Positions 15,491-62,784 of a DNA stretch of 64,000 nucleotides are shown here, piece after piece. The stretch is from the NCBI GenBank assembly GCA_965649765.1, contig OZ287751.1:99572001-99636000 (forward strand). Reading direction: 5' to 3'. Each line of letters begins with the position of its first letter. Within the stretch, counting starts at the first letter, position 1. Below the pieces are notes generated by a model that was given only the letters and a program-made list of their open reading frames with translations, did not search any database and was not told where the DNA came from. Made by a program: the position numbers and the translations under genes. The DNA comes from Bispira polyomma (Eukaryota).

Positions 15491-15497
15491 GTTTCAG

Positions 15498-25247: not shown

Positions 25248-25464
25248 CAGTCTCCCTTTCGTTAACCCAGCATTACACTTCAAGTCTTTCCCGGGTCAGA
25301 TTTGTCTGTCCCGGGTAAAGGTGATAATAACGTTAAGATTTTAGTGAAGTAGGAAGTAGATGTAGGAAGTCAGACGTTGGTTTGGGAAATTTATTTTACA
25401 CATTTCATATATCACAACTTTACAAATTTTAAAAGATTTAAAACTTTTAAAATTTTATGCCCAA
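25248..25464 (-). repeat. Y3 split direct repeat B2 (217 bp)
   Basis: About 7 mismatches to 26097-26313 by eye. Confidence 0.95.
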
Positions 25465-25858
25465 TACATATTAACATGGTCAACAAGGACCCAAGAAAAA
25501 GATAATACATAGACCATCTATAAGGTACGTCTATAATAGTATTATAATGTATACATGTATAACATTAAAAGTTACAGATAAAATATAAAACATTCATATA
25601 TGCACTGTGTTCCCTGTGCGAGATGGGTTTGAGGAAATATTATCATTCTATGTAATTACTTATTTCTCTCTGGGGTGGGAACCCGGCACCCGCGGCACCT
25701 AGTCGCCTAGCAGAAGTTCCTTACTTCCAGAGCCTCTATTCTACCCTGGCTTGCCTAAGGCTCAGGGGAAGGTATAGAAGTAAGGATCATTCCACACGGT
25801 GTCTGGGTTCCAACTACCCAGGCAATATAGTAATAGTTATGATAAGGGTGGTGGGCGG

Positions 25859-26096
25859 GAGAGATTTATACTGACTTTCCTCTCTGGTTTCTAGAATTAG
25901 AATGACCAATATATGAAAAGCTGGGGCCAAACCCAGCTCAGCACATGGCTTTTATTACGTTTCATTGGTTGGGGCATTGTCACCTGTCTGGTTGTCACCC
26001 CATACAGTATTCTAGTATATTTGTGCTAACAGTAAAGGGTTATTATTTGGCGACTGAATTGTCATGCAATTGTTATATCATTTGCAGTGACTGTTA
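25859..26096 (-). repeat. Y3 split direct repeat A2 (238 bp)
   Basis: About 7 mismatches to 31503-31740 by eye. Confidence 0.95.
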
Positions 26097-26313
26097 CAGT
26101 CTCCCTTTCGTTAACCCAGCATTACACTTGAAATCTTTCCCGGGTCAGATTTGTCTGTCCCAGGTAAAGGTGATAATAACGTTAAGATTTTAGTGAAGTA
26201 GGAAGTAGATGTAGAAAGTCAGACGTTGGTTTGGGAAATTTATTTTACATATTTGATATATCACAACTTTACAAATTTTAAAGGATTTAAAACTTTTAAA
26301 ATTTTATGCCCAA
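26097..26313 (-). repeat. Y3 split direct repeat B1
   Basis: Lies immediately after the YR stop and abuts A2. Confidence 0.95.
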
Positions 26314-26324
26314 AAGCCAAAAGT

Positions 26325-27303
26325 TTAAATAGAAGAGGGGATAAGAGCCGCAAATGTGGAAGGGATAATTGAAGCTGCATGTGTTGTTGCCTCAAGGAAT
26401 TCCCAAACCACGTCTGACTTCCAACATCCATGTTTTTGAATATCTTGTAATTTTATATTTTGGTTGAAGGCTAGTAAGGCTCCTGATCGCCTAAAGCAGT
26501 GGAAGGAGTGACCTTGATGTGGGATTTGTAAGGAGGTCAGAATTCGTTTCAGTATTTCTCTGAGTCTAATGTCTGATACACATTTGCCTTCTATTCTGGG
26601 GTCAGCCAATAGAGGTGACATTGGAGAAAGAGGGTATTTTCCAATGAGAGAGGTCACTGCTTTCACTGGGCAGAACCAAGGATTTAGTAATTGTGGTAAT
26701 TGTATAATGTTTGGTTTAATCCTATTCTGATTTGTCTTTGACCACTTAATAATTACATGTAGTCCGGGTGATGCCATGATGACATCCGCCCTAGTAAGAT
26801 GTCTGGTAGGGTAAATTTTTTGTCCAGAAGTAGGTGTAAGATTTGATATTCTTAGGAAGCCATTGAATGCCATTAAAAAGGCTGTTCTATATAGTTCTGG
26901 AAATGGCAGTTTTTCACAAGCTTTTGATATGTCTTGTAACTGGTGCAGGTCAAAGATTCCTTTAATTTTGGTGAGTATGTGGAGGATAGTTCTAGTGACC
27001 TCAAGTACAATGCTATTCTGGGATCATTCAAACTTGTGTTGCCAATATTCAACAATTTGCAGTTATGTCTCACTGCTGATAGGTAGTTGTGGCTAACCTT
27101 ATATGATTTGACTGAATGTTGTAGAAATTCCAAAAAGGAAATGATTGAACTGAAGTTGAATGGTTCAACTAATTCATAGTATATGGTAAATGCAATATAA
27201 AGCCTGAATTGCTTATCGTTGGTTTTTCTAGTCTTTGGTCTGTGGCTTTTGGCCAATCTTTCTGTCGCCTGTCGCAGCAATGGTCTGATACTGTCTGGCA
27301 TGT
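26325..27303 (-). CDS. Y3 tyrosine recombinase (one frameshift near 26950)
   Basis: ORFs 26873-27301 and 26325-26873: AFNGFLRISNL (R), SKT (K), HSFHCFRRSGA (HxxR), HGCWKSDVVWEF; the catalytic Tyr appears replaced by Phe. Confidence 0.92.
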
Positions 27304-27368
27304 CTAAAATTAAAAAGTGTCGTCCATTATTAACATGCTAAGTGGAGTGTCTTTCATTATAAAGTTAT

Positions 27369-27839
27369 TTAGAATAAAGTCTTTACTTTGGTCTGTACAT
27401 TGATTTTGTCGTACCATCTAGAAAGAGTATCAGCCAGGACATTGTCCTTTCCCTTAATATGTTGTATGTCTAAGTCTATGTTTAATTTTGCACATATTAA
27501 CCACAAGTTTCTTAGACATAAAGCTAAATGACTGTCTTTAGTACGTGATGACTGCACCACTGATACCACTGCCATGTTATCAGCCATAATCCGTATTTTT
27601 TTATTTTCTAATTCTGTGCCCCACGTCTTAAGGGCTATAATAACGTCAATCATTTCAAAGTGTACTATCGATAAGCCGTCTTTTATAAATGCTGGAATAG
27701 GGGTTTTAAACACGTAATCATTATATACTCCTCCTATGCCAGTTAGGCAAGCGTCAACGTGTATGATGGCATTATGACTTCTCATGTCACCGTGATATTT
27801 TACTGTACCATTAAATTGTGCTAAAACTTTACAAACCAT
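27369..27839 (-). CDS. Y3 RNase H domain (frameshifted from RT)
   Basis: HVDACLTGIGG, HFEM, ADNMAVV, HIKGKDNVLADTLSRW. Confidence 0.92.
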   Translation of the reverse strand: MVCKVLAQFNGTVKYHGDMRSHNAIIHVDACLTGIGGVYNDYVFKTPIPAFIKDGLSIVHFEMIDVIIALKTWGTELENKKIRIMADNMAVVSVVQSSRTKDSHLALCLRNLWLICAKLNIDLDIQHIKGKDNVLADTLSRWYDKINVQTKVKTLF

Positions 27840-28900
27840 TGCAAATCTTTATGAAAATCATTGGTCAATGTAACAAATTTATTGCTAGTTGAAGTTCGCA
27901 AAAGGGCTAGCATTCTGTTTAGAAATATGCGAGATGGCTTTATGCATCTATAGACATAAAGAAGTTTGCCAAGTAATGATTGGTATTTGTTTTTCTTCAC
28001 TTTACTTAAGGTTGTAAATTCTATGCAAATTGCTATGATCGAATTTAATTTTTCTTCATCAATACTTATTGTCTGCTCGTCTATATCTATAGTTATGCCC
28101 ATACACGTGACACACTTTCCTGGTTGGACCAGTTTTTTCCCATTAAAGGGTAGACCTAGATCGTGGAGTATTTGCTGTAGTGTTTGGTAAGCTAACTCTG
28201 CCTTATCTTCCTGCTCACAGATAATAAAATCGTCGATGTAGTTAAAGATGCAGAACCCTTTCTGCTTAAGAATATAAGTCACTGCGTCCGAAATTTTTAT
28301 AAAAATCACCGAGCCGTGGGTGAGGCCAAAAATTAGACTTAAATCGATGTACCACTTATTATTCCAATAGTATCCGAGTTTTAAGCAGTCAAAAGGATCA
28401 ATCCGGATATTCCTAAATGCATGCGCGACGTCCACTTTCGCCAATGTCACCTTGTCACCTAATGTCAGTAGTTTCGAAGTAATTTGGTCTAAAGTGGGTA
28501 ATCTTAAAACAAAGTCTATATTGTCATATTTATTCTTAAGTGTATGGTCATTGACAGATGCACCTTGTGGATGAGACAAGTTCAGTATCAATCTTCGCTG
28601 GTCTATATCCTTAGGACGTGTTAATAATGGGGAACAATGGAAGTCGTCATGTATGACGTCACTTATAGGACCAATTATAGTTCCCTTGTTAACTTCGTCT
28701 AGAAAGTACTTGTCAATTGTGTCTGGGTATATTTTTGCAAAATAGTGGTTTTTAATCACCTGTGTGTTAAGTCTATTCCTATCATAGAGGGATATGAGGA
28801 AACCAAATTCGATGTAAGTCACCAAGGACTTATCATAATAGTCTGTTAGGTAGTGTTTCCATGCGTCAATATTAAGGTTTGATTTAATTGGTATTCTGGC
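27821..28900 (-). CDS. Y3 reverse transcriptase
   Basis: ORF 27821-28825: SPLLTRPK, KVDVAHAFRNI, LIFG, YIDDF, CMGITID, QSLLGKL. Confidence 0.95.
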   Translation of the reverse strand, partial: ARIPIKSNLNIDAWKHYLTDYYDKSLVTYIEFGFLISLYDRNRLNTQVIKNHYFAKIYPDTIDKYFLDEVNKGTIIGPISDVIHDDFHCSPLLTRPKDIDQRRLILNLSHPQGASVNDHTLKNKYDNIDFVLRLPTLDQITSKLLTLGDKVTLAKVDVAHAFRNIRIDPFDCLKLGYYWNNKWYIDLSLIFGLTHGSVIFIKISDAVTYILKQKGFCIFNYIDDFIICEQEDKAELAYQTLQQILHDLGLPFNGKKLVQPGKCVTCMGITIDIDEQTISIDEEKLNSIIAICIEFTTLSKVKKNKYQSLLGKLLYVYRCIKPSRIFLNRMLALLRTSTSNKFVTLTNDFHKDLQWFVKF

Positions 28901-28912
28901 TGCTTTATAATT

Positions 28913-29926
28913 CTAGATACCTGTCTCCTTTATAATGTCAGCTATGTGTGTCAATTTTTCATAAGTATCTATATTTACTGGCTGTCTATCTGGGCCAATA
29001 AAAGTAGGGTCCTTTACAGTATGAGGTATGAATCCATACAGTCTGTCATCTACATGGTGTATTTGTCCCGAGTCCAAGTCCTGAGTATCCCTTAAATGTT
29101 GTTCAATATGAATATCTACAACGTCCTGTTTCAATGTTTGCTGTATCTGTATGTTATCATTACTTTGTGTGTTTATCTGTTTGTTTTGTTGTGTATCTTT
29201 AATAGGTGATACCCATTGCATATTTTGTTGCTTACATAATTTATCTATAATTGCAATGTAGTAGCTTGCCTTACTTATTTTTGTACGGCAATGTGTGTTC
29301 TTAGCCAAAGTTGTTGTTTGATTTAATCTGTGTGTGTTCTTGGCTAAATGCTTGTTTTTTGTCAGTTTGTAAGTTTGTATGTATATTTTTGTTGTTTGTA
29401 AAAATTGTACGGGCCATATGTGGTCCAAAGTATGGGTATTTTTACACCACTGAGTACTACCATTAATATTCATTAATGAGTAGACTCCTGAAAATTTTGT
29501 ATCTGTTTTAGACACTAAGTAGTATAGCATATCAGTATCACAATGACCCCATCTTGTGGAGGCATATATGTCTACATTATGATAACTATATAACAGGTTG
29601 TTAGCACATGCAAGACTGAGGTTAGGTACAATGTTCTCATGTGTGACATCTGTCATATCTTTAAAATTTACAATATTATTGACATTATTTACATCATAAT
29701 ATACTTGATGAGAAAAGTTCCCATCACTTGCTAACATTTCCTTGCCTTTATGTAAAATGTTGGCATTGTCATTTTTGGTATTAACACTATGTTCTGAAAT
29801 GCAAATTTTTAACTCGAAGTCATTCCCTTTGTCTAAATTGCTAGAATTTATAACTTTTACATTCGTCTCTACAACATTATAATTTCGGCTTTTAGAATGG
29901 TACACTTGAACACTGGTGTTTTCCAT
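28913..29926 (-). CDS. Y3 pol N-terminal extension of unknown function
   Basis: 337-aa ORF in the same frame as RT, separated by one TAG at 28913; ends with YGFIP, a motif shared with other copies (YGFVPL in Y7). Confidence 0.7.
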   Translation of the reverse strand: MENTSVQVYHSKSRNYNVVETNVKVINSSNLDKGNDFELKICISEHSVNTKNDNANILHKGKEMLASDGNFSHQVYYDVNNVNNIVNFKDMTDVTHENIVPNLSLACANNLLYSYHNVDIYASTRWGHCDTDMLYYLVSKTDTKFSGVYSLMNINGSTQWCKNTHTLDHIWPVQFLQTTKIYIQTYKLTKNKHLAKNTHRLNQTTTLAKNTHCRTKISKASYYIAIIDKLCKQQNMQWVSPIKDTQQNKQINTQSNDNIQIQQTLKQDVVDIHIEQHLRDTQDLDSGQIHHVDDRLYGFIPHTVKDPTFIGPDRQPVNIDTYEKLTHIADIIKETGI

Positions 29927-31320
29927 GTGAGTGGTACTTGTGTGCAGTCCGTCTCCCTATGTACTTGGTGTAGTGGTTGGCTTGTCATGCAGGGTGCTTC
30001 TGGATGTGGGTTCGATTTCTTTGTTGTTTTATAACAGTGGGCACATATATGCTTATAGAAGACAGATCCGTTGTCATGGTCAGCCTTGTGGGTACATTGG
30101 TTCTTTTTGAAGTGCTTACAAGGTACTTCATTTCTGTGAGAACTCGACTCCTGTGTGCCAGGGACTGTGTGTGAGATCAACGCTTGTGAGTACGATAATC
30201 GATTTATGCTCCATTTTGCTTCTTCTGCCCAGCTTAAGTGGCCCCCTTTGACGTTGTGCATGTTATGCACGTATGCCCCCCTCGCCACAGGCCAAGATAT
30301 GTTAGCGACGTCTTTTAAAGTATACGAGAGCTGACGTAGCATGGACTGTGCTATCAACTGGTTATTTGTTTCTAATATGTTCTGAATTTGCCCAGCTGCA
30401 AACTGGGCAACTGATAACTCATCATAAGCAATACGTTTCTTATGTAACCCTGTAAGGCAGCCCTCGTTGGGCCATCTCATGGTGGAATCAGAGGTGCAGA
30501 TTTCGGATACGCTGTATCGCCCAAATTTCTTTTTAAAGTTAACTTTACCAGTGAACTGTTCCCCCGTGGCCCATGCCTCGTACTGCGCCAATCTCTGGTT
30601 CACCTGGTTCTGTATTAAGTTGGACTGTCTCAGTACGTCTGCAGTCGGAGTAATGGAGTCGCTAACGTGGAGTTGCTGTGATCCAGCTGTAAAAGCTGTG
30701 GGCGCGTTCGGGTGATAACCTTGCCTTTCCTGTGCTGAAGCAGGGGTGGGTAATAATGACACTTCCCCTGGTGTGGTAAAATTCCTTATACACGCGTCCT
30801 GTCGTGGGGTGGGTAAAAGAGACACTCCCCCAAATCCTAAAATTCCTCCCTGTTGTATATCATAAGAAGACGAACCTGGTTCTGCTGTCATCTGACGTGG
30901 AGCAGGGTTTGGCTGCGTTTGCGTTGCTGTAGCTGGTTGTGAGTTCGGTTCTAACGCGGATCGTGTGTAAGCAACTTCTAAATGCGCCATCCTATCCCGC
31001 TGACTGTCATTCTGTTTTATATCAGAAATGTCTTTTTTAAGTTCATTAACAGTGGTCACTAACGAATCCATTGTATCTTGATGCCTTTGAAAGAGCTCCC
31101 TATAAAAATTGTCATTACTTACACTGTCTGTAACCGTAAAGCCATGTGTCTGTGCCTTCTCTGGCGTGACTTGGTTGCTGGCCCCCATGCCGAGGGATTC
31201 CGGTGAGAAGCAATCCTCTATTTGATGGCTACATCTCAGGCCAACAGGCCTTGGGTGTCGTATTCTACAGTGTGAGCAATCTGCAAGTGATTCCTGAGCA
31301 CGTTTTTTTCCTCTTCCCAT
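29869..31320 (-). CDS. Y3 gag-like ORF1
   Basis: 483 aa; N-terminal CSHCRIRHPRPVGLRC finger, coiled coil, C-terminal CKHF..C..H..HICAHC..H...C finger. Confidence 0.88.
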   Translation of the reverse strand: MGRGKKRAQESLADCSHCRIRHPRPVGLRCSHQIEDCFSPESLGMGASNQVTPEKAQTHGFTVTDSVSNDNFYRELFQRHQDTMDSLVTTVNELKKDISDIKQNDSQRDRMAHLEVAYTRSALEPNSQPATATQTQPNPAPRQMTAEPGSSSYDIQQGGILGFGGVSLLPTPRQDACIRNFTTPGEVSLLPTPASAQERQGYHPNAPTAFTAGSQQLHVSDSITPTADVLRQSNLIQNQVNQRLAQYEAWATGEQFTGKVNFKKKFGRYSVSEICTSDSTMRWPNEGCLTGLHKKRIAYDELSVAQFAAGQIQNILETNNQLIAQSMLRQLSYTLKDVANISWPVARGAYVHNMHNVKGGHLSWAEEAKWSINRLSYSQALISHTVPGTQESSSHRNEVPCKHFKKNQCTHKADHDNGSVFYKHICAHCYKTTKKSNPHPEAPCMTSQPLHQVHRETDCTQVPLTWKTPVFKCTILKAEIIML

Positions 31321-31502
31321 TGTAAGGGATTTTCACTTTTTCATGTGCACTATGTGATGTATATAAACGTCCTCAACACAAAACCACCATAAAAGTATAA
31401 AATTTTAAGCTAAAAACACTTTAACTTCTAAAATTTAATTTCATAAAATATTTTCCAAGTTTTTTTCAATATGGCCGCTATTTAAAAAGGCCTGCATGTG
31501 TA

Positions 31503-31740
31503 GAGAGATTTATACTGACTTTCCTCTCTGGTTTCTAGAATTAGAATGACCAGTATATGAAAGGCTGGGACCAAACCCAGCTTAGCACATGGCTTTTATC
31601 ACGTTTCATTGGTTGGGGCATTGTCACCTGTCTGGTTGTCACCCCATACAGTATTCTAGTATATTTGTGCTTACAGTAAAGGGTTATTATTTGGCGACTG
31701 AATTGTCATGCAATTGTTGTATCATTTGCAGTGACTGTTA
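31503..31740 (-). repeat. Y3 split direct repeat A1 (5' terminus, contains CCAAT)
   Basis: Begins TAACAGTCACTGC on the minus strand; AACCAATG present. Confidence 0.95.
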
Positions 31741-33669
31741 AAGTGATATTTGGCACTGTTGCACTAATTGAGCATCAAATATTTAAAGGTGTTTTTAGGA
31801 TTTTACAGTCGGAGGACCAGCCTTAAAACACATTTGTTGAAGTGTGTTGAAAGTACCAAAATATTTACCCTAAAAAAAAGTTTTTAAAATGACAAAATTC
31901 TCAAAATTTTACCTTTAGTGTCTTAAGATATCGAAGAATATACCTAGATATTTTAGATCTGTGCTGAAAGCTTTACTAAACAGAGTGATAACTCAATTAT
32001 TTCCTTGGTCAGAACATATATATATGAGGAATTTAAGTTTACGTTAAACACTTCAATACAGCCCCAGTTTAAAGTCAAAAATACAATAAAACCTATACTA
32101 TTGGGACAATAATATGTTGTTCTGTTAAACAAAGAGGTTTCATCAAATGGGGAAGGGGTTGCTGTATAAACAATTTGAATCAAACAAATATTCATGTTAA
32201 TAGAAAATTACTACTAAATTGACTTCTCTAGGATTATATACGACTTACAGAAGTAAAATGTAGTACTACTGTACCAACGGGTGACATGTGCTGGTAATAC
32301 TCAATGAACTGGCTCTCTATTGAGATGATAAACTGGTGCCCTAATACTTAATAGACCACAAGCTCAACTCACTTTCATGCTGAAATCTTAAGTACACATA
32401 TCTCCAGCTAGAGTGATATTAGGTCAAATCTGACTGCATATTTGAATTCTGAGATGAAAGCTCTATTAAAATGAATGATCACAAGTATAGGTTACTTTAA
32501 TGTACAAGGACTTCTACATTGACTTTCTGTGAGTTCAGTTAGGGCTTGAGTTATGCAGGGCCCCTGTCCATTAATTGTTTCCATGTGCAACAGAGTGACA
32601 ACTTTATACACCCACACAATGGCCAGCACTGTGTGTGAAAAAACCCCACTAGAGTTAATCATTTTATGGTTAGCCGAAGTGGGGATCCATATAGTATTAT
32701 GTTCCTTTTGCATGTGAGTTTGGGGTTTGAGATTTGTCTTTAACTTTAAATAAAATTTCATGAATAGGAAACTTTTTACTGAATTAGAGAAATTTAATAC
32801 ACATCAATTTAAAATGTAAGGTAAAGTGTATAGATAACAGTAATATAACTTAAGTTTCATTTGTTTACCCTCATTTAACTGGTGTTAATAGATTACCCTA
32901 GGTTTGTGAAGTCATGTCCCCCCAAACGGTAATATCCAGTCGCCCAGTACTCTTGAGAAACACTATAAAACCCGGTTTGATACAGGGTATAGTCATTTAT
33001 TTGCCTCAAGGGATATAATACAAATTAAGATGAACCAAATGGTACTTCAGCCAAACACCTTCAGCAAAATTGTATATTCGGTCAGCTTTGACGACTTCAA
33101 GTTTATATTTTCAAAAGTAATTTTCACATTACTGCAAAAGACAAATCAATATTTAGAGAACAACACATGCCAAAGTATGATATACAGTAATTGTTACCAC
33201 AATTAGAGGCTTAGGAAAATTGGTCGGTCAAAATTACTTTAAATAAGTTCGGTCATGTGTTCATAGTCGAAAATAACAAATTTTCTACTGTATTCCAATA
33301 TTCTACTGTATTTATTGGAATATTATATGTTACTGGATAAGCTATTTTCTTTTATCATCAATCCTACGGATGAAAATGGTCCATGTTTATATAATCAATT
33401 TTACCGAAGCCTTTGGCCAATCAGAATCGCTGACACAGCCGCGTCATGGTAGAATAGGACATAACTATATACTATTTGGCCACAGATTGACTTTTTCATT
33501 TTTTGTTCTTTCCAATGCACCAGTATCACTACAGAGTTATACTATAGTTATAATGTTTGTCCAAAATAGTACCATATCATCACGTTAGTAACTTTTCAAA
33601 ATTCCCTTTAGCCTAAAAAACACCAAATTCAAATATTGAAAAACATATTTTACATAAAACCTTGTCCCA

Positions 33670-36467: not shown

Positions 36468-37466
36468 ATGACACCAAGGAAACTATACGACTGTACAAAA
36501 TGTGGCAATAAGCATGTTAAACCCATAAACGAGGATTGTAATGGTGATAATACTGAGGACGATCAGACAGAAATGTAGAACTCTGTTTTAGCCAGTAAAG
36601 GTGTGGCCGCTGATGACATTAATTTGCAGATTTTATCTGAACTCAGCGCATTAAGTGGTCATATGACCGTGGTCGAACAGCAGGTTAATCACGACGAACG
36701 TCGAGCCCAGACGTCGGGGCAATCTCGAGTCTGAAAGTTCCAGTACAGAGGACTGCAGCACAGCCCACGCAGACTACAACTTCCCTGGATGACCTGCTGA
36801 TCCCGACACTACAGACACTGCACACACGCAGTCCCTGCAGATGGCTGTCCACTCTCGTCTGAAGGAATTTGTCACTATGAATGAAGCAGGTACGTGCAAG
36901 TCACTATGAGGGAGAACAGAATCTGTTTGGGTAAAAAATAAGATACAGTGGCCTCAAAGTCATATTCTTGGGGGACAGGACAAATCCCGGTTGTCATACA
37001 ACACCCTCTCAATGGCCCAGTGAGTATCAGGCTCTGCTTCTATTGCAAGAGAGGAAAATAATGTTGATGTAAAAAACCAAATTCTAGATTACCTTACAGA
37101 TATTATGGAAGATTTGCATGACTTTTCATGGGCGTCTGCTTAGGGGAGCCATGCAGTTTTTTTATGCAAAATGGAAGAGGGGAAAAATGGCATGAGCAGA
37201 TTCACATAAGATAGATAGGATTAGGAGGGCTTATGCCTAAATAGTTTTTTACAAAATAATTCTACTTGCTATCAGAGCAACCCTAGAAAGAGTCATGACA
37301 AAGGTTTACCGTGTAAATATTACCAGAATGGCACTTGCCCCATAAAACTGAGCATGAGACCAGAGGGGTGACTTATAGTCTAGTGTGCAGTGAATGCTTT
37401 AAAACTGGCCGCTCAGATCCTCATCCTGCAAAAGATTGTAGGAAAAATCCACCAAAAAACCCATAG
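36468..37466 (+). pseudogene. Y4 gag-like ORF1 with many stops
   Basis: Homologous to the Y2 and Y7 gag (MEDLHDFSWASA, PCKYYQNGTC, HPAKDCRKN). Confidence 0.8.
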
Positions 37467-44852: not shown

Positions 44853-47800
44853 TACCCCAATATACTGTGATTTATTTATTTCTTAAATTTTAGATTTGGA
44901 TTTTTATGTATTTAAACCTGTAAAAGTTTTGTTCCAGACCACCAAACACACTAGAAAGTATTTTGCAGGGCAAAAGCGAACGAGTCAGCCACTTAAGTGC
45001 TGATCATAACCAAGTCAGTAATATATCGCCAGACGCAGTGTGACGTCCAGGTAGGTGCCATGCCTCTGAATGTCCTTCGGATAAACACTGTTATTAAACG
45101 CAAACATGGAACCCGAACTTTGAAAGTGTGGAAGTGAGGTTTGAATAGTGCAAATTCAACATATTTAGCAAGTTTTTAAGATGGTGCCTGACTCGGCTAT
45201 CCATTGTGGAGACCCAAGTACTACCTACCTTGTACTGGAAAGACGGGGCATTCTGGCAAAAAAGACGCCATAGAATGGGGGCAGAGATTAGACAAATGTA
45301 AAAAAATAAAGAAACTAGTAAGATAATTGCTTTAAAATCTGGCCCATATAAGTTAGATCACATTTCTCTACTAGCCTCAACATAAGAGGTATGTCAAAAA
45401 CACTTTTTAATTTAATCTTGAGGGATCTATTGAATAATAACGCCCTGGTATAGTAAGAGATCCCTGGATCTGAGAACGCATCCACTCTAATGTGAAACAA
45501 TATACATTTTGCTTTAATGGCAGATAAATGATTGGCAATTTGAGAAGGAGACACACTGTTAAAGCTTAAAAATTTAAGTATAATACCAACTGAAAAAAAA
45601 TCACCTGAGACTCTGTCTAATTCATGAAAATACTAAGGCCAGAAACAACCTGAATATGCCGTTGTAAGCAGAGGTGGTGGATGGAGCCAGAGCAGTGTGC
45701 ACCCTTCTACAAAACCATACTCGTGAGCAGATTTTTCAATGGATAAGCCCCTGTAATACTAAGGTACAGCACACCAATTAAATACTGTTATCTAAGTCAA
45801 AAAGGGTTGCATCAATAGGCAACAATCTGACAGGTCACACCCATTCATGCAACAATGAAGTATTGTTCTTGCTTTTAACCTATCTAGAAAGCAAATCAGC
45901 CACCTTAATTTTGACCCCCAATTTATGGGTAAGTTTTATATCAATGTCAAAGTTGCTGGTTCACATAGGCACTGACATCGCCTGCTTGTCACATTTAAAA
46001 AGGACTCTTTTGCCACATCCCAGCCCAGAGTTTCAGGGCAATCAGGATATTAAGCATTTCCAAAGAGGCAATTGGGTACAGCCAACTTATAAACTTGACC
46101 AGCATATATCCCCCCATCCCAGTAAGACATGCGTCAAGCTCTACCTGAGTGTCTATGGGCAAAGAAACTGGTACCATTGAATTGTTGCTTGAACGTTGTA
46201 AACCAGTGGAGGTCTCTATTGAAATCAACGGTTACTGCAAACTGTTTCTTGGTATGATTATATCTTAGCAATTGTAGCAATCTGTTGAAATATACTCAAG
46301 CATATATCATAGATTTAGATACATATAAGAGGGACCAAAGCAGCGATTGTAGTTCTCTCTTAGCTCAAGCTTCCTTTTTCACATTTGACATAATGCTCTA
46401 ATTTCCCCCATTTTCACGAAAGGAATAGAAGTGGTGAAATCCACTGTATTTATTAGAATCCCTAGGCAAATTACCTCAGTACTGAGGGGAAAAAGTTTCT
46501 TGGGGCTAATCGTTAAACCCAGTTCCTTCCAGGAAAGCCGATAATCTGTCATAAATTTTAGTTATTTTACTAGGTAACGCCAGATATAAATAGTCGTCAA
46601 TGTACACGTGTATATTTAGGCCTTCCTTGGCCATTATATATCTGGCAGCATCAGAAATTTGCTGAGAAATAGTTGTTCCATTCTGCTAACCAAAGGAGAG
46701 GGATCTGTCTAGATAGTCCCACTTCAGGCCTAATAAGTCTGCATCTCCACGATCAATAGGCACATGTCTTAATGTGCTTCTTATGTCAACCTTAAATATG
46801 TGGCAGCCTCTGCCTAGTTTGGAGATCTCAGTAGTTGTCAACAGACGGGTATGACAATAAGAACTCTGTACCAAGATATTTAGTGGGTGAAGCCACGGAA
46901 TTGATTGATGGCCCAACTGGCCAACTAATATAGACAATAATGCGCTTGTTGCTAGTACTGGATTTATTACAAGTCATCATGTGAGAGAAGTGCATATTTT
47001 CTATAGGTGGACTACTGAACGGACCCCAGATGGCACCATGCATACATTCCCCACTCAAGTATGTATCTGTGTGGTCTGCAAATTCAGTAGTCGACTTACT
47101 GCCATCCGATTGGCTAATATTCTCTCGATTAACATCCACAGGACAGCCGTGCTTCACCAGTAAGAAAAGTTTCTTATCCCAGTAGGATTCAAAATATTGA
47201 GACCATTTTTCGGGATTCAGTTGCGAACTTCTAAATTTTTGCCTACCATATTTTCTCAATATGTGATGCATCTGCACAAAATCAGAGCTGTAATTCGAGG
47301 CCTTACTCTCCCAAACTCTACACCCTAAGTAAGATAATGGAATGAAACCATACTCAACCTTGTCCTGGCAACGCCATTTGCAGTGAGTTGTGTTACCTTG
47401 CTCAATACTTTAGGAGGTCTTTACTTTATGAGGTCTTTTTTTGTTGACCTTCTGTTTAAGTTCTAACGCATATTTATCATTACCTAGACTGTCGTCAGTA
47501 CTGAAACATTTTGTTTCTACACTACTTGCCTGGCATTTATTGACATACTTCTTGGTAATTCTAGTACCCACTGTATCAAAGTGCATTCGGTCGCCACTCT
47601 TAGTGCACTGTATGATTTACATCAATACTGACCATAGTATCGGTGAAGTCCGGCAATGTTAAAGCTTAAAACCTGTTGTCTAACATTAATTGATTTCCAG
47701 TGTCACAGAAGTTTCTATTAGCCTTTCTGCCGATATCATAACCAAACCCAGCCTTGCCCCTAACAATGCTTTTCCCTCCCCCCACTAGTTGTTAGGGGTG

Positions 47801-48950
47801 GCATTGCTAGGGCCTGAGCCGGGTCGGACATTAACCGGGTGACACTTTTTTCGCCAAAAGGTGCGCTTTCTACTGATTTAATTTGAGGTGTCAACTTTTT
47901 GTTGACCTATATTCACAGATACTCGGTTTACAGGCCTTGATATTTCACAAAAACTACTTTCCTGTGGTTGTCCACCTATCTTGCTATAACTAAGGTTACT
48001 CTGTCTACCCCTGATATATCTACACATTTTTGTCCAGCAATTTAAATTACTGGAAACCTGTTCTGTAAATTTTCCTACTGATACATTTACTGCATTGCTG
48101 CAGTGGGCTCTTAGTTTTTTGCATGCTTGCAACTACAATTACTGCTTTTGTGGGCACCAGTACAATGTTCACACATGTGTATCAAGTATGTATTTTCACT
48201 TTTGTGACCCGACGGGAACTTACAGGTGCCTTCTTGATAAAATTTGCAGTTTGTCGACCCTTGCTTTCCTTTCACCCTGCTCTTGCTACTATTCTGACTC
48301 ACATTGTAATCACTGGCACTACTAGAAACGTGCCTCTACGTATGTGCGCCCGCCTAAGCCGGTCAAGTTTCTTAACTTTATTTCACTAGAGTTTGTCCAT
48401 TTCCATGGTGGTTAACACTACCGCATCGACCCTACCTCCCCTCTGGGATTTGATCTTGCCTTTCTTGTGGTCCACATTCTTTCAGTTCCTCGAGCGGCTG
48501 CTCGACCTGGGTCTGAATGGGAATGTTTTTCTTTAAAAAATCTACACTGGGGATAACTCCCTCAACGCTGTCTGAATTGGATTTATGGGAACTTACCAAA
48601 TTACCACTGATATTGGAATTTTTATAAGCCAGCTTTTGAACCGAGTCCGTTGCCAAAGCACCTGCTTGTCTAAACGCACCATCACTGCGCCCATGTTTGG
48701 AACTTGAAGCAGAATCTTGCTTGCCACTTCCGCTAAGCCGTCAGGCATGTCCGAATCAGTGATCTCTTTAAGGTTGTCCTAAAACATGGACTCCTGATGT
48801 ATAACCATATTTACTACCGACTGGCCTAACATGCTTGCCCTTACATTTGTTACAACTGAAAACCTTAATTCTTGGCATTTTGAGGTAAATAATGAACAAA
48901 CAAGTTACTGTATAAAATCTGTTATTGTTTTGCAATGTAATTTTGGGGCA
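44603..48950 (-). mobile_element. Y6: degenerate Ngaro-like YR retrotransposon with both ends truncated
   Basis: gag from ATG 48878 (MPRIKVFSCNKC), finger CKFYQEGTC..HMCEHC..H, RT (FKVDI, YIDD ~46590), RNase H (ELDACLTGMGG), YR (ORF 45315-45554; WTSHCVWRYI ~45020-45050), array 44603-44852. Confidence 0.9.

Positions 48951-52422: not shown

Positions 52423-52423
<1 letters not shown>

Positions 52424-52502
<79 letters not shown>
52424..52502. repeat. (TA)n microsatellite
   Basis: Directly visible. Confidence 0.98.
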
Positions 52503-52505
<3 letters not shown>

Positions 52506-56739: not shown

Positions 56740-57711
56740 TAGGTAGTAGTGGAGTGTGAAAGGAGGGTCTGGAAAGCCAAGGCCACCTGTTGGGAGTCAT
56801 TATGGTCTTTGGTTATGTATTTCTAGATGCAATCCGACGTCCAGGTGCCATGACTCTGTATCTCTTCAATAGGGACATTACTGTTGAAAGTGAGACACCA
56901 GAACGCCGGAAGGTAATATTAGAATGTTGTAGTCCCAAGCGCTGGAGTATGCTCGTTAGGTTGGCTCGAACTCGAGTGTCAGTCAGTGGTATCCCGGTAC
57001 TATTCTTCTTAAACTGGAAAAGAGGGGAGTCTCTATGGCCTGGTGTAATGGCTAGCAACGCCCTAACTGCTGAAACTGGACAGAGGGGGGGGAGGAAAGT
57101 AAGGTAGGAACTTTTAGTATCTTGGCAGCAATTTTGGACTGCAGTGTCTTAGTCCACTTTATTAAAATGGCATCACCTCTGGCCAATTGAATTATGGGAG
57201 ACAAATGTGAAGCTGCATGGGGAACCAAGTTAGAAATCCTGAGGAAAGAAAAGAATGCTATCAAATACAATGCCTTAAAAACCTGGTCCATATACATTTT
57301 ATCACAGGATTGGATGATTTGGGTAAGGAGGGGTATATCAATAATTCTTCTTATTTTGGCCCTGAAGGGGCTATTGAGCAAGAGTGATTTTTGGTAATAC
57401 CTGATTCTAGGGTCAGAGAAAGCAGAAACATTTAGGCAGAATAACGCCATCTTGGCTTTGATTGCAGAAAGGTAATTGGAAATGGAGGAAGCAGATGCGT
57501 GGTTAACCACTAGCACTTCCAAAAATGATAATAATACAAGTGGGGAAATATGGTTGGTATTTATATGTGCAAAACAGCAGTAAGCCAGGAATATTCTAAA
57601 CATGTTCAAATAGGCTTTATCAGTGGAGGGTCTGAAGGCCTGGTGAGCCCTCTGTGATGCTTCCGTGGCTATCTGTCTGTGAGAGGGCACATCTACAATT
57701 AGATAGACCAA
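56740..57711 (-). pseudogene. Y7 tyrosine recombinase (frameshifted)
   Basis: ORFs 57052-57711 (AFFSFLRISNL, KWTKT) and 56813-57058 (TFRRSG); HGTWTSDCI*KY at ~56815-56851. Confidence 0.9.
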
Positions 57712-60134
57712 TGTATTTTTAGCATACTATTACTCACTTTTACCCACTGTGGATTAGGGACTAGACTTATAAGTATTTTATTTCTATCCTCAGTCAGTGT
57801 CCATCTGGACAGCAAATCTGTCACATGATTATCTCTACCTAGAATGTGAATGATTCTTAAGCTGATGTCCACAGCAGCTATTTCCATAAAGATGTTTCTG
57901 GCTATTGCTGCCAGTGTTAAGTCTTTAGTTCTACCCGAACCCAAGATTGTTACGACTGCTGCATAATCACACTGAATTACCAGTCTTTTGCCTGCCCATA
58001 GGGACTTCCAGACCCGTACAGCTACTAATATGTTGAGCATTTCTAAATGCACAATAATAAGGTCAAGGTAGCCCAGGGAAAGGGAATACTCATATACTTG
58101 GTCATTATACCTGCCCCCGAGTCCTTCAAGACAAGCATCCAGTTGGATGCAGTCAGTGGTTGAGTCATGGTAAAAAAAATGCAGTGCCATTAAACACAGG
58201 CAGAAATTTATTGAACCAATTGATGTCTTGTCTAAATTCAGTTGTGAGTGTGATTTTTTTTGCTATTATCTACTACTCTAAGGACGTCTAACATACAGTT
58301 TATGAAGACACGTGATACTCTGACACATTTTGAAACATACAGTAATTTGCCTAGAAGTGATTGGAGATCCCGTTTTGTACAACTTGGTTTTTTCTGCCAA
58401 TCTTTAACTAGGGAGATGGTTTCTGCTAGTTTTTCTTGGGGCAGTGATACAGTAAAGTTTTCCATGTCTACCAAGACCCCTATACATGTAACTTTTGTAC
58501 CAGGATATACTAGTTTCTTTTCACTTATTGCAAAACCTAATTTTTGTAGCAAGTGGTGCAATGTATCAAATATACGTCTGCTCTCTTGGGCGTTACCGTA
58601 ACCGCTTACGTCGTCTATGTAGTTAGTGACGTCAAAACACTGTGATTTCATAATGTATCTCACGCTGTCACTGAGGCGTTTAAAAATGGCGCTCCCATGA
58701 CGAAATCCGAAGGGGAGGCAAGAATCTACATAGTATTTGTCAAATTTAGGCCTAGCAGGTGATAGTCAGCGGGGTCCATCTTTACGTGACGGAACGCCCG
58801 ACTGACGTCAATCTTCACTGGTTACCAAATTTTACTGGTTACTGTGTCAATTGTGGGAAGTGTGAGTACAAAAGGTGTGTTTAAATATCTGTCCTTTGCT
58901 ACAGCAGTATTAACTGACTCACCGTGTGAATAACTTAAGTCAATAATAACACGGTTTTGTTCTACATGGGAGAGAGGACTGACCCGCTTAAAGTCCATGG
59001 GGAAACCATATCTGACTAAGAAGGGTAGTTGGGAATCCCAATAATTATATTTTTTGAGGTATTTTTCCCAGACATCAGGTTTAAATTCTGACTTCATCTC
59101 AATTTGAGGGCCTATAAAGTTGGGACACTTAGCTGCACTAATGATAGTATGTAACTCAATTAATGTAGCCTGTGAAGTAACCCTTTTATCTGACTCAGGA
59201 ACCTCAATTTCACCTAATGGAACAAAACCGTACTTGTCTGTGGTCTGTGAATTCCATTGCTGGAATATGGGGACGTTATGGTCTTCCCTTATAGGGTCCC
59301 TGTGTTTAGGTCTGAGTTGGAGTTCTAGATCATATTTATCAGCCTCCAGTGTACTTGTTTTACCTGTGGGAGTTGTGGGTGAACCCTTACTTTTGCATTC
59401 GCTGTGGCCTTTTGTTTCTTTTCCAGTATCAAGAGGTTTTGTTTTGGGAATAATCCCATTGTCAATTACACCATAACCCACAGAAAGAGGGGAGAAGCTA
59501 TTGTATGTGGGGACAAAATCTTTGGCACCTTCTCACAGGTGTAAGATAGGAGGACGAGGCTTTGTATAATTGTGTTTTCACACCTTTTCCCCCATCCCCA
59601 TTACCGCGAGTTTTGGTTGATTTTTCCATACTGTCAGGTTTCACACCTATTCTAGGGGAAGGGACAGTGGTACGTGATTTACCCCTAGCAACCACTTTGG
59701 TTACCTGTTTGCTGACAGATCTGTCAGACTTTCCTGAAAGGTTGGCAAAACATGCATGGTTAATACTTTTTTGTAAAACAGTACTGTTTTTCATTGTTAC
59801 ATAACACATTGGAAATTTCACAGTTTGGTTAGTTTCTGAGCCGTGTATACTGGAGAACATGTGGAGTTTGTTTTGATTTACCATTTTTTAAAATGTCCAT
59901 GTAAGATTTCTTTTTGAACTGAGCCCAGTCTGTCCTACAGTGCGCACTGGCTTGAATATTAGCAAAAGTGTTATATACAATTCTACCATGAAATTGTTTT
60001 TCACTATACCTCTCAGTACAAAGTTCATTGTTCATTGTTCTATCATTGAAAACTATGTTTTCACTCCACCTGGTACTTTTGTCCGAATAATCTTGATCAC
60101 TATGACTTGATAGGGGCACTGCATGCCTTACTCG
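57699..60134 (-). pseudogene. Y7 pol (extension, RT, RNase H), disrupted
   Basis: ORFs 59829-60197, 59498-59884, 58822-59481, 58238-58663 (YIDD) and 57699-58190 (LDACLEGLGG..DLLSRW). Confidence 0.92.
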
Positions 60135-60664
60135 TTTTTTGCATTTTTTCTGCAATCCTTTGCAGGGTGGGGAAACGACCGCCCATTCAATATACAATTA
60201 CTACACACATGCAGATAAGTGGTTCCTTTAGTTTCATGATCTCCTTTTTGGGGGCAAGTACCCTTTTGGAAGAACTTACATGGAGTACCCTTGTCATGAC
60301 TTTTCCTGGAGGGGCCTTGTGTTTGGCTAGAGTTTTGGCTGGAATTAATTACCCTCTGGGCATGAGCCCGCCTAATTCTGTCGAGTTTATGGGACTCGTC
60401 CCATGACACCTTCCCCTCTTCCATTTTACAGGATAGGACTGCATGACTTTCCTTGGCCGCACTCCAGGAAAAGTCATGAGCGTCCTCCATGAGGTCCGAT
60501 AAGTACTCTAACATTAAATTCTTGGTTGCAACATTACTTTCTTCTCTAATGATGTTTGAAAAACCAGCGACCCACTGGGGCATTGTTAATGAGTCATACG
60601 AGAGTCTAGTTTTACTATGATTTGTGCCACATTTAAGGCAATCATATGTTTTTCTCAGAGCCAT
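60128..60664 (-). CDS. Y7 gag-like ORF1 with an in-frame internal deletion
   Basis: MALRKTYDCLKCGTNHSK is joined directly to TRLSYDSLTMPQW; the middle part present in Y2 and Y4 is missing; C-terminal finger intact. Confidence 0.85.
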   Translation of the reverse strand: MALRKTYDCLKCGTNHSKTRLSYDSLTMPQWVAGFSNIIREESNVATKNLMLEYLSDLMEDAHDFSWSAAKESHAVLSCKMEEGKVSWDESHKLDRIRRAHAQRVINSSQNSSQTQGPSRKSHDKGTPCKFFQKGTCPQKGDHETKGTTYLHVCSNCILNGRSFPHPAKDCRKNAKNE

Positions 60665-62784
60665 TTGTTATTCTCTGAATAATATAAGAACACTCGCGTT
60701 TTGATACCTGTGTATATACTATTGACTATTAATTTGGATGTAGAAGTGTATGAGTAGAATAGGTCTTAATATAGTAATATAATGTGAGGGGATACGTCCC
60801 TTTATCAGATTTCAGGCAAGCATATACACAAGACTCAAAGTATGAGTACAAAACACCACTGTAGTTGTGACTTCATCTATAGTGTCCAGAACGTCTGTGT
60901 GATCAATCCCAAATATAGTTAGATAGGACAACATGAATAGTTCCAGAGTCTTAACGCAAATTAAAATCACAAACAAAAAATAAAGTAAAAAATAAAAATG
61001 GCGGTGTTGCCCTTTAGACTTCAATACTAAAAGTGATATCCCCACAAAAACGGCGGGAAGACAAGGGTCAATTAGTGCAGAGTTCACCAATTAGCTTAGG
61101 GGTCAAGACCCTGGACTAAACAAATTACTGGCAGCACTGATCTAGCTAGGCCCTGTGGGTCTACCCTGCAGAGTTCGGTATTCAGAGTTCGGTATTTTTA
61201 ATTTTATCTGTGTAAACATTTTATTACTCAGTTGGTTAATGGTAATAATGGTATACTGAGTTGTATATCATTTTATGTTGGCCAACATTTCATATATTTC
61301 TGATTTTCTTTGAGATTATATAAATCAACTCGCCCTATTGAAGGTAGTGTAATTGTGGCCTCTATAACTAGTAATAAAATGATTGGCTTCCTTTGCTGTA
61401 CTCAACACCTTAAGTAACATACTGTAATTGGTAACTTGATACACCAGTTCTTATTTCATAATTAACTATGCAATTAAAAAGAACAAAGAAATACGTTTAT
61501 TCAATACATAATAATAGTTCATTACAAATTTTGAAAAAAAAAAATGATATTAAATGAAAAAGTGTAATACAAAATGTTTTTTGTAAGAAATATACATACA
61601 AGAACACCATAATAACATATTGACCTGTTGACTATTGGTCTTCGTGCTATTTGCCAGTGTCTTCCATAACAGTTAATGTAATCTTGCAAATTATGAAATT
61701 TTACTTTACTTCTCCCCTTTTCCCACCTCTATGTCTGATATTTTCTTTTCTCCAATTTTTCCCTGGGTGTTAGGATTCCCTTTACTGATGTTCATGTTTA
61801 ATGTTTTACTTCTATATATCCCCACAAATGATGACGAGACATCCTAGGTGGCACAATTCCAAGTCAATATGCACAAGAATAGTCTGATATGAGGAAAGGT
61901 TCGCGATCAGAGTTCAGTCATAACCAGTAGATGAACGTTAAGTTGAAAAAGCGAGTTAATATAGACATGTTTTTTTTTTCAAAAGAACGTAATCCTTGTC
62001 TCAGTACAAAGACTGACCGGGAGACTATTCCGCTCAGCATTGATGCAACCTTAAATTTGTTTTAACCCACTAAGCTTTCTTAGTTTCTCTTAGGTTTCTT
62101 TATTGGTACAGCTTTGTCACCATGTCTCCACATGGTGTCTGGGGTCTTTCTTCCTCTATGTGTCTGTCAATAAAAAACAAAGTGTTCCTTATTTTACACC
62201 AGGGATGCTAACACTTTTTCCCTTGGCCCCTGCATTGAATTTTAACTTGCCTTTAAACCCGATTTCGATTGCACAGAGCAATTATTTAGTTACATTTGCG
62301 TCGACTTCCACTATGTAGCTTTGCATAAGTTTAAGCTAAATGCAATGGAGCAGAATTCGAAAGTCACTTGGTCCTTTTTAATAGACAGATAACATTGACA
62401 CATCGTCCTATGATTGTTCTTTTGCAGCATATTTAAGAAAGTTCTTATTTATTTATTGTATTTATTTAAGACAGAAAAAAACAATGGATGAAAAAAAATT
62501 GAAAAAAAATAAAATTGAAAAAAAAAAGAAAAAAACATGCACAAAAATTGTCTTTATACAATACTTAAGTATATACCGTACTCTAAACAAAATGTGTTTA
62601 TGTAACCCTGTGTACAGCACTTTTATCCTTTTGTGATACATTTGAGTTTTCACAAATTTAAATAGAGTGGTAGTACCGGAGAAAAAATATATTAAGTATA
62701 CAATCTGAGTTAAAGACTTTCAAACTTAAGGTTTTGCTAATGAACCCTTCTCAAGTGATGGGAAGTTCCCTTAAACTCTCTCTA

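Follow-up and report, generated by a model that had tools for sequence, protein, structure and literature searches.

How a retrotransposon whose pol gene lies in the -1 frame with respect to gag makes its Pol protein is the question raised by element Y7, located on the minus strand of the window (the whole 64,000-nucleotide stretch of Bispira polyomma DNA that was analysed). Y7 gag ends with GCA AAA AAC GAG TAA, in which the heptamer A AAA AAC (60134..60140, minus) is in phase with gag and is followed by a 6-nt spacer, whose last letters form the gag stop codon (60128..60133, minus), and by the remnant of a hairpin (60115..60127, minus). Judging from sequence comparisons, we consider it very probable (roughly 0.88) that -1 ribosomal frameshifting at A AAA AAC with a downstream hairpin makes Gag-Pol. 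Overlapping frames are known in Ngaro retrotransposons (PMC9210276), and frameshifting has been conjectured for them at the junction of RT/RNase H and tyrosine recombinase (YR) (Poulter and Butler 2015, as quoted in an excerpt of PMC13003380); the literature that could be searched describes neither a slippery site nor a stimulator for any Ngaro or DIRS element. In contrast to that conjecture, the signal described here is at the gag-pol junction, while the YR junction resembles a splice acceptor. The original prediction of retrovirus-like Gag-Pol frameshifting is supported by sequence, with the qualification that frameshifting had already been conjectured for Ngaro elements.

Elements Y7, Y6, Y4, Y2 and Y1 are decayed Ngaro-type retrotransposons. 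The likeness to Ngaro (order DIRS) consists in the arrangement of gag, RT/RNase H and YR on one strand (Y1, Y2, Y3, Y6 and Y7), in the absence of a methyltransferase domain (no Pfam hit in the 15 frames scanned) and, in the complete element Y3 (25248..31744, minus), in the split direct repeats A1-ORFs-B1-A2-B2 that define Ngaro (excerpts of PMC8547959 and PMC4157794). The Y3 repeats are A, 31503-31744/25859-26100, and B, 26097-26313/25248-25464 (242 and 217 nt, 97%); none were detected around the site-bearing Y7, Y2, Y4 and Y6. DIRS1-like and PAT-like elements have a methyltransferase in pol, and DIRS1-like elements have inverted terminal repeats with an ICR (excerpts of PMC3266345 and PMC4157794). 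Both identities were rejected, since there is no room for a methyltransferase domain and since Y3 has direct repeats and no terminal inverted ones. The RNase H stop and the start of YR are no more than ~30 nt apart in Y7, Y3, Y6 and Y2. In Y7, gag (60128..60667, minus) encodes C-x7-C-x5-H and C-x2-C-x9-H-x4-C before K-N-E-stop and has suffered a deletion after the first zinc ligands, with loss of its N-terminal half and of a donor-like site; the remaining pol (extension, RT and RNase H; 57699..59887, minus) consists of four broken pieces without a methyltransferase, and the YR gene (56751..57692, minus) is frameshifted.

Pfam has no family for Gag or for the pol extension, nothing in the window matched Rfam at gathering score, a word search found no homolog of Y3 Gag, the ESM Atlas returned only unnamed clusters (0.89-0.92), and ten Gag records that were looked up had no names attached. 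When metagenome, viral and prokaryotic collections were scanned for Gag, 292, 18 and 67 pattern matches were obtained, respectively, among which no relative was confirmed. A heptamer-plus-hairpin pattern retrieved 46, 0 and 45 loci from the same collections; these 91 loci were dropped as chance matches because none holds Gag, RT or YR similarity.

The in-phase A AAA AAC reported earlier at the gag ends of Y7, Y6 and Y4 was confirmed at every coordinate. In Y6, GCA AAA AAC TAA (heptamer 48120-48114) opens a region with the gag stop and a hairpin core (48089..48120, minus), while in Y4 (37454..37466, plus) CCA AAA AAC CCA TAG comprises the heptamer (37454-37460), one codon and the gag stop, with no hairpin left. 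The Y2 site (13098..13131, plus) is indeed one A short (13098-13103) and is followed by a 6-nt spacer and a hairpin remnant (13110-13131). The earlier inventory stands for the elements that it listed but overlooked a decayed site in Y1 (8132..8163, minus), where A AAA AAT, TAG and the remnant of a hairpin are found at 8163-8132; its phase is inferred from the TAG because gag is broken just upstream. Thus, the exact in-phase site is present in 3 of the 6 gag-bearing elements of the window, and a one-base variant in 2 more (Y1 and Y2). AAAAAAC occurs 48 times over both strands of the window, and the chance of at least 3 of 6 gag ends having it in phase within four codon positions is P ~7e-8 (P ~6e-4 for any canonical heptamer); since the copies share descent, the P value measures retention and not independent origin. 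The window copies bearing the site are dead, and Y7 retains the heptamer and only part of the hairpin.

Y3, the youngest element, belongs to a group mostly without the Lys-Asn (K-N) site. Its pol is -1 to gag with an 85-nt overlap and an AUG of its own in the pol frame, and its junction has, as was originally stated, no canonical in-phase heptamer, nor a strong fold (z +1.2). A GGAAAAC in the overlap was rejected as a slip site, being out of phase with gag. In the group of Y3, Gag ends in P-N and G-N would be compatible with C CCA AAC and G GGA AAC.

Hairpins had been claimed downstream of the Y6 and Y2 sites. Both were confirmed, and over the 80 nt that follow the site the RNA is predicted to fold better than shuffled sequences in Y6 (z = -3.0; a 6-bp core with a GCAA loop, 48104-48089, minus) and in Y2 (z = -2.2). 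The claim does not extend to the sequences of Y7 and Y4 themselves, which fold no better than shuffles over the same 80 nt (z +0.46 and +1.3). The Y7 remnant is 9 nt shorter than its counterpart in related contigs of the same organism. These contigs (6 records in X2 and 7 in X3, from one sample) diverge from Y7 at 60124 and past this point show a complete 9-bp inverted repeat around a 4-nt loop; 3-nt insertions just upstream of the heptamer preserve its phase. The distance from K-N to the 5′ arm is two codons (6 nt) in P0002, P0003, P0004, P0006, P0052, P0027, P0029, P0082, P0131, Y2, Y6 and Y7, and 3 nt in P0118. Among the 6-nt-spaced records the stop codon is found 0, 1, 5 or 12 codons after Asn. 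Since the spacing is fixed while the stop moves, the predicted stem is anchored to the heptamer and not to the stop. The peptide P-L-Q-K-C-S-G of P0082, compared with A-L-Q-x-C-S-A of P0027 and P0029, implies replacement of a G-C pair by C-G, the one compensatory change seen, from a single peptide; the three window remnants have 6 pairs and 0 compensatory changes. We infer the full 9-bp stem with its 4-nt loop from peptides and contig ends rather than from aligned intact DNA. A loop of 4 nt leaves little room for a pseudoknot.

The trait was next followed at the protein level in Gag relatives. The first search returned 30 Gags (43-68% identity; P0018 was re-sorted by eye), 25 of which have a recognisable last zinc knuckle. 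Eighteen of these end with K-N plus 0-1 codon and five with K-N plus a short tail, the two others being variants, K-K-E and I-N-E. From a profile search, the best 150 of 4411 hits were taken and reduced to one representative per 50% cluster; 81 reach the knuckle and 70 have tails of 2-25 aa. Within this selection, K-N is present anywhere in the tail in 47 of 70 Gags and within the last 0-1 codon in 32 of 70 (shuffled tails: mean 6.0, maximum 15 in 10,000), counts that do not represent independent events since the records are related. The distance from the knuckle to K-N varies from 2 to 14 aa, and K-N ends are found in three clades with FastTree support of 0.99-1.0. No K-N is present in 23 of the 70 tails, mostly from the group containing Y3. 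The Lys-Asn Gag end, as read from these sequences, is a family trait retained across divergent families, though not universal.

Several observations bear on the letters behind this dipeptide. In 31 of 32 cases the residue before the terminal K-N is one for which a codon ending in A exists (28 being S, A, T or P), compared with 95 of 128 for residues before other tail lysines; in P0129 an Asp at this position is incompatible with the full heptamer. Of 22 records listed as out of frame, 9 are readable, recognised partly by the expected pattern. Eight of the 22 give the +1 reading Q/K-K-T, from which xA, a middle codon ending in A, and AC instead of AT follow, and one gives the -1 reading K-K-P. 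The peptides of all 9 thus imply the heptamer's own letters, and synonymous variation within the heptamer, which would count against frameshifting, was found in none of them. The other 13 give no clean reading: 4 end early, 5 are unrecognisable, 3 re-enter the frame or differ by one A, and 1 belongs to the non-K-N group. In the window elements, AAG is used for 50 of 160 Lys, and AAT and AAC for 69 and 46 of 115 Asn, respectively. In the comparison with contigs of the same organism, none of the 40 substitutions listed, out of 196, falls inside the heptamer, which at this coverage proves nothing.

As described earlier, the -1 frames of Y7 (59829..60197, minus) and Y6 (47878-48132) are open across the site. 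The Y7 frame is the start of the pol extension, with the motif RIVYN..W..SY, but is not continuous with RT, pol being split into five pieces. The RVIYN..W..SY motif is common to Y7, Y2, P0093 and P0065; a Met precedes it in the -1 frame of Y7. Pol occupies the -1 frame with respect to gag in Y7, Y6 and Y3 and in the database records P0093 and P0118, and in P0093 Gag runs directly into the -1 pol frame at the A run. The exception to this arrangement is the decayed copy Y4, whose -1 frame runs for only ~24 codons before a stop and whose conserved pol motif is found in +1. The refuting arrangement, an intact copy with pol in the 0 or +1 frame, did not turn up among the copies and records where the frame could be read.

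According to the mechanism that we propose, a minority of ribosomes would move back by one base, continue in the overlapping pol frame and produce Gag-Pol, while the majority would produce plain Gag. By the established tandem-slippage model, tRNA-Lys and tRNA-Asn would re-pair from AAA AAC to AAA AAA, the stem stalling translocation meanwhile. The frequency of slippage would set the ratio of Gag to Gag-Pol, and the fusion would bring RT/RNase H into the particle. The heptamer A AAA AAC is used by MMTV, HTLV and astroviruses, and frameshift stimulators are located ~5-9 bases downstream of the heptamer. In the excerpted descriptions, retroviral and LTR-element -1 signals consist of an in-phase X XXY YYZ at the gag end, a short spacer and a structure, with pol in -1 (PMC6771820); pol is in -1 for 28 of 51 animal LTR elements, and few heptamers induce shifting on mammalian ribosomes as readily as A AAA AAC (both from an excerpt of PMC5009743). 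The signal described here resembles these in its in-phase heptamer, short spacer, downstream structure and -1 pol. It differs from retroviral ones in its host, a tyrosine-recombinase retrotransposon with neither a protease, so that Gag-Pol would presumably stay uncleaved, nor a DDE integrase, and from the MMTV gag-pro pseudoknot in that a simple stem-loop of 9 bp is predicted as its stimulator.

One can also suppose that the hairpin acts on the gag stop, by readthrough or termination-reinitiation, or in RNA packaging, that Pol starts at its own AUG or comes from another RNA, and that the heptamer is incidental. The gag stop is often within the spacer (Y7, Y6 and Y2), and a Met is found near the junction in the -1 frames of Y3 and Y7. 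Yet the distance of 6 nt between heptamer and stem is kept where the stop is displaced by up to 12 codons, and no Met precedes the pol motif in Y2, P0093 and P0065; we regard this explanation as very unlikely. Its readthrough form was rejected on frame, since pol would have to be in the 0 frame and is in -1. Still less probable is that K-N is kept for the protein's sake or stems from Lys/Asn-rich tails, the heptamer being its commonest spelling. Of the ~810 tail residues, as many as 185 are K and 111 are N, an average of 24 of 70 tails contain K-N at some position after shuffling, and AAA is the commoner Lys codon in the window elements. However, no shuffle approached the 32 terminal K-N observed, AAC is the rarer Asn codon and is nevertheless present in every one of the 9 readable records, K-N is followed by anything from 0 to 12 residues without mutual similarity, and selection on the protein would leave the hairpin unexplained.

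To slippage of RNA polymerase or RT on the six-A run, with some transcripts encoding Gag-Pol in frame, we assign the lowest likelihood. Runs with one A more or less are found in P0093, P0056, P0120, P0113, P0117 and Y2, but mutation in dead copies or homopolymer errors explain them equally well. Six A is short for polymerase slippage, and the in-phase X XXY YYZ, the constant C at its end and a stem spaced as for a ribosome suit translation and not transcription.

If ribosomal frameshifting is accepted, recoding of the retroviral type extends to a retroelement branch without protease and integrase. Translation of overlapping genes in YR retrotransposons has been conjectured and, in the searchable literature, never tied to a sequence signal; the 35-nt element can be inserted in a reporter, which makes the question directly testable. 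In genomes without annotation, the Lys-Asn Gag end can serve as a protein-level marker of the signal. As a mechanism, this is textbook knowledge; a spliced recombinase, if shown, is the newer part.

With regard to the recombinase, a pyrimidine-rich YAG in phase 1 is present where YR similarity begins in 4 of 4 readable copies, as in Y7 (57693..57708, minus; 6 nt past the RNase H stop), Y6 (45751..45766, minus), Y2 (15482..15497, plus) and Y3 (AG at 27305-27304). Donor-like sites are likewise present in 4 of 4 copies, at a glycine that is conserved in Gag: Y6 (48454..48462, minus; GC form), Y4 (CAG|GTACGT, 36887..36895, plus; phase 1 of gag), Y2 (CAG|GTAACT, 12503..12511, plus) and Y3 (30551-30543). 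These phase-matched sites suggest, with somewhat better than even odds, that the recombinase is made from a spliced message. Spliced or fused forms were sought among recombinase-bearing proteins of 351-2000 aa; the result was blank, which is weak evidence.

Ribosomes could instead enter YR without splicing, by shifting -1 a second time where RNase H ends, as the review conjecture cited above has it (an excerpt). In Y7, Y3 and Y6 the YR frame is offset by -1 from that of RNase H, and Y2 has slippery-like runs ~40 nt before the YR start, within a frame-disrupted stretch. On the other hand, the RNase H/YR overlaps of Y7, Y3 and Y6 have no usable in-phase heptamer, that of Y6 is only 2-3 codons long, and fungal Ngaro elements have YR in either frame relative to RT-RH (excerpt of PMC3783388). 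These points, with the acceptor-like and donor-like sites found in every copy where they could be read, make a second frameshift unlikely. Y7 (at 57744) and Y6 (at 45806) do have heptamer-like matches within these overlaps, but the -1 frame is closed immediately downstream of each, and they were rejected as slip sites for this reason.

With splicing preferred for YR, one transcription unit could yield three proteins: plain Gag, Gag-Pol by -1 frameshifting, and a fusion of the Gag N-terminal half to YR by splicing, a scheme to which we give an even chance. The splice would join the phase-1 donor in mid-gag to the acceptor, also in phase 1, that closely follows the RNase H stop, and the Gag half of the fusion would comprise zinc ligands and a coiled coil. 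If true, this combination of frameshifting and splicing replaces the double-frameshift picture of the review, accounts for expression and packaging of an AUG-poor recombinase gene, and offers a reason for the effect of gag on Ngaro target choice. Foamy virus pol and gypsy and retroviral env are expressed from spliced messages from which gag-pol sequence is removed as an intron, and the proposed recombinase message would reach its downstream gene in the same way. It would differ from them in its mid-gag donor, so that the integrating enzyme would carry the N-terminal half of Gag.

The window is eukaryotic, repeat-rich DNA (30-42% GC) in which the remains of six gag-bearing tyrosine-recombinase (YR) retrotransposons (copies Y1-Y4, Y6 and Y7) were found, together with fragments near 42.6-44.3 kb; stops or frameshifts break every copy. 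In a Pfam scan of 15 frames, Y3 and Y7 gave hits to RT, RNase H-like and integrase-type domains, most of them under the curated cut-offs, and Gag gave none. Y3 is flanked by split direct repeats (242 + 217 nt, 97% identity) in the order A1-ORFs-B1-A2-B2, and none were detected around the other copies. The YR gene directly follows the RNase H stop, and the space is too small for a methyltransferase. Given this structure, the type is Ngaro by the structural definitions in the available portions of PMC8547959, PMC4157794 and PMC3266345.

The four gag-end sites of the original prediction were all found. The heptamer A AAA AAC closes gag in phase in Y7 (60134-60140, minus strand), Y6 (48114-48120, minus strand) and Y4 (37454-37460, plus strand), and Y2 has it one A short (13098-13103, plus strand). 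To these can be added a decayed site in Y1 (8132-8163, minus strand), with A AAA AAT, TAG and a hairpin remnant; a TA/TG microsatellite has grown within gag just upstream. Since AAAAAAC occurs 48 times on the two strands of the window, its in-phase presence at three of six gag ends is far above chance (P of about 7e-8, for copies of common ancestry). In Y3, as had been claimed, no canonical in-phase heptamer is present in the 85-nt gag/pol overlap (29872-29956, minus strand), where pol is in -1. The proposed downstream folding held against shuffled 80-nt sequences for Y6 (z -3.0) and Y2 (z -2.2) and not for Y7 (z +0.46), Y4 (z +1.3), Y3 (z +1.2) or Y1 (z -1.1, over 141 nt).

After the junction, an R-[IV/LI]-[VY]-N..W..S-Y motif is common to Y7, Y2 and the related database proteins P0093 and P0065, with no Met ahead of it in Y2, P0093 or P0065 and one in Y7. 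P0093 passes from Gag via S-K-K-R-L-G-H-C into the pol frame, as one extra A would produce, and the 347-codon extension of Y3 is in the same frame as RT, -1 to gag. The -1 frame after the junction is coding; Y4 is a counter-case, with the pol motif in +1 and the hairpin lost.

Because searches of three collections (metagenome, viral, prokaryotic) turned up no DNA of relatives, conservation was tested via proteins, in which an in-phase A AAA AAC reads as x-Lys-Asn, x being a residue with an A-ending codon. The first search gave 30 Gags of 315-423 aa at 43-68% identity, all without an RT fusion. The last zinc knuckle was recognisable in 25, which end in Lys-Asn plus 0-1 codon (18), Lys-Asn plus a short tail (5) or variants (2). 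A profile search returned 4411 representatives (E <=0.001), and among the best 150 of these, 81 reached the knuckle; once 11 tails of <2 or >25 aa were left out, Lys-Asn was present in 47 of 70 tails and within the last 0-1 codon in 32, while 10,000 shuffles averaged 6.0 terminal cases and never exceeded 15. The preceding residue allows an A-ending codon in 31/32 terminal cases and in 95/128 for other tail lysines. In a FastTree tree of 72 Gag cores, the Y7 clade (support 0.99) is filled by Lys-Asn ends, which also occur in two other clades (1.0 each). Y3 groups, with weak support (0.84), with relatives that mostly lack Lys-Asn. The missing site of Y3 is therefore a property of its lineage, and the site has a wide distribution without occurring everywhere; some tails in the Y3 group end in Pro-Asn or Gly-Asn, which would fit other heptamers. 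Three Gag records (P0065, P0123 and P0133) are open in frame for 100-170 aa beyond Lys-Asn, including the pol-extension motif in P0065; they are probably broken copies, possibly natural fusions.

The letters of the heptamer can be read through 22 records that left the Gag frame upstream and reach about as far as the junction. Eight show the +1 reading Q-K-T or K-K-T and one the -1 reading K-K-P-R-H-C, nine readings biased by the fact that the records were picked out partly by the expected pattern; of the other 13, three return to frame or are off by one A, four stop early, five are unrecognisable and one belongs to the group lacking Lys-Asn. Q-K-T dictates C-A ahead of the Lys codon, A as its third base and AC in the Asn codon. 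Synonymous variation within the heptamer, named beforehand as evidence against a signal, was not seen, AAG/AAT-type forms numbering 0 among the readable records; the window's elements use AAG for 50/160 Lys and AAT for 69/115 Asn. The same records contain the stem, as A-L-Q-x-C-S-A (P0027, P0029) and P-L-Q-K-C-S-G (P0082), where base 1 of the first residue and base 2 of the last form a G-C pair in the former and C-G in the latter. In-frame tails like K-N-x-x-G-T-A (P0002, P0003, P0004, P0006, P0052) represent the same 5' arm, which begins 6 nt past the heptamer in nine records as well as in Y2, Y6 and Y7, and 3 nt past it in P0118.

Contigs of the same organism from three runs, which belong to one study and no more than two samples, were compared with 59700-60700 at 80% likeness, and 188, 206 and 208 records fitted. 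In two of these contig sets, six (X2) and seven (X3) records diverge from Y7 at 60124, within its hairpin remnant, and continue with a full 9-bp inverted repeat and 4-nt loop, Y7 being 9 nt shorter at that point. Three-base insertions at 60140-60142 keep the heptamer phase. Substitutions inside the heptamer number 0 among the 40 rows listed (of 196), which is not evidence by itself.

The gag-end site is real and conserved, and it most probably serves as a -1 frameshift signal. Like standard signals, described in the available text of PMC6771820 as heptamer, spacer, stem-loop and overlapping -1 frame, the Ngaro junction has a heptamer, a 6-nt spacer, a predicted stem-loop and a -1 overlap, and few sites shift more readily than A AAA AAC (PMC5009743, available part). 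Gag-Pol would arise from a -1 slip at A AAA AAC, with the stem 6 nt downstream, and we put the probability of its production in this way at about 0.88. It is very improbable that Pol expression is linked to the stop or to an AUG: the gag stop lies 0, 1, 5 or 12 codons after Asn, and since the spacing of arm and heptamer stays fixed while the stop moves, it is the heptamer and not the stop that sets where the stem lies. Retention of Lys-Asn at the protein level seems still less credible, and polymerase slippage the least credible; each of these three conflicts with the frame, the codon letters or the spacing.

The idea of frameshifting in Ngaro is probably not new, since both Poulter and Butler 2015, quoted in the available part of PMC13003380 as considering it probable for the YR frame, and Goodwin and Poulter 2004 could make that suggestion for gag-pol too. 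The gag-pol signal and its conservation appear new: frameshifting was conjectured earlier for this element class, where the signal had not been located. For YR retrotransposons, neither a slippery site nor a stimulator is described in the searched portions of PMC3266345, PMC3783388, PMC6681497, PMC8547959, PMC13003380, PMC9210276, PMC7192593 and PMC9341512, nor in those of PMC4157794, PMC5009743, PMC6771820, PMC8556966, PMC12477816, PMC2632668 and bioRxiv 10.1101/2021.01.25.428050; DIRS, Ngaro and tyrosine recombinase go unmentioned in the first 300,000 of the 449,034 characters of PMC5009743.

For the recombinase, expression by splicing from a candidate mid-gag donor to a candidate YR acceptor, giving a Gag-N/YR message, is the reading we moderately favour. 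A pyrimidine-rich YAG lies 6-27 nt past the RNase H end, at the start of YR similarity, in Y7 (57693-57708, minus strand), Y6 (45751-45766, minus strand), Y3 (27304-27319, minus strand) and Y2 (15482-15497, plus strand), and its phase relative to the YR frame is 1 (calculated in Y7 and Y3, read off in Y2 and Y6); 2-14% of window AGs score as well. Donor-like sites occur mid-gag, at the glycine just ahead of a K-S-Q-R-G-G motif, in Y2 (CAG|GTAACT, 12503-12511, plus strand), Y3 (CTG|GTAAAG, 30543-30551, minus strand), Y4 (CAG|GTACGT, 36887-36895, plus strand) and, in GC form, Y6 (AAG|GCAAGA, 48454-48462, minus strand), in phase 1 of gag (computed for Y3 and Y4). The donor consensus is matched equally by 0.6% of GT sites at the Y2 and Y4 level and 17% at the Y3 level, the Y6 GC site being not strictly comparable. 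Among 180 Gag records surveyed, 76 could be anchored, and in 71 of these a glycine lies 2-9 residues upstream. It is preceded in 71/71 by a residue that allows an A-ending codon (background 85%) and followed in 66/71 by K, T, R, N, I, M or S (K/N/T/R/M/I follow glycines generally in ~34%); the residues that follow it have in common a first base A, not chemistry, as G|GT A would require. A second frameshift is unlikely: the YR frame is -1 relative to RNase H in Y7, Y3 and Y6, and Y2 has slippery-like runs, within a disrupted stretch, near the RNase H/YR junction, but the overlaps of Y7, Y3 and Y6 contain no usable in-phase heptamer. Use of a separate start is more doubtful still.

In Y7, considerably more than 100 codons are missing from the interior of gag (60610-60664, minus strand), so that the conserved core now abuts the first zinc ligands and the donor-like site is gone. 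A stretch of 27 nt at the 3' end of the Y3 YR gene (26402-26428) is inverse-complementary (81-85%) to part of each B repeat (26208-26234, 25359-25385). Just 3' of the YR gene, Y1, Y2, Y6 and Y7 carry clusters of short, near-palindromic TAAGGTNACC-type motifs (4317-4405, 16470-16604, 44604-44852, 56418-56583), and a further cluster is near the window's end (63690-63854); all are possible recombinase-binding or RNA-structure sites. The local density is striking: within 64 kb there are YR retrotransposons of six or seven families, unrelated to one another (Gag ~25-60% alike). Several mutually similar fragments look like RT ends of non-LTR retrotransposons, which we take to be of CR1/L2 type; they occur at 10672-11538 (minus strand), 35736-36162, 49607-50425 and 585-860 (plus strand). 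The interior of Y1 has a 258-nt inverted pair (4860-5115 and 7029-7285, 90%), and a 96-nt near-perfect palindromic or simple repeat is located at 52410-52505.
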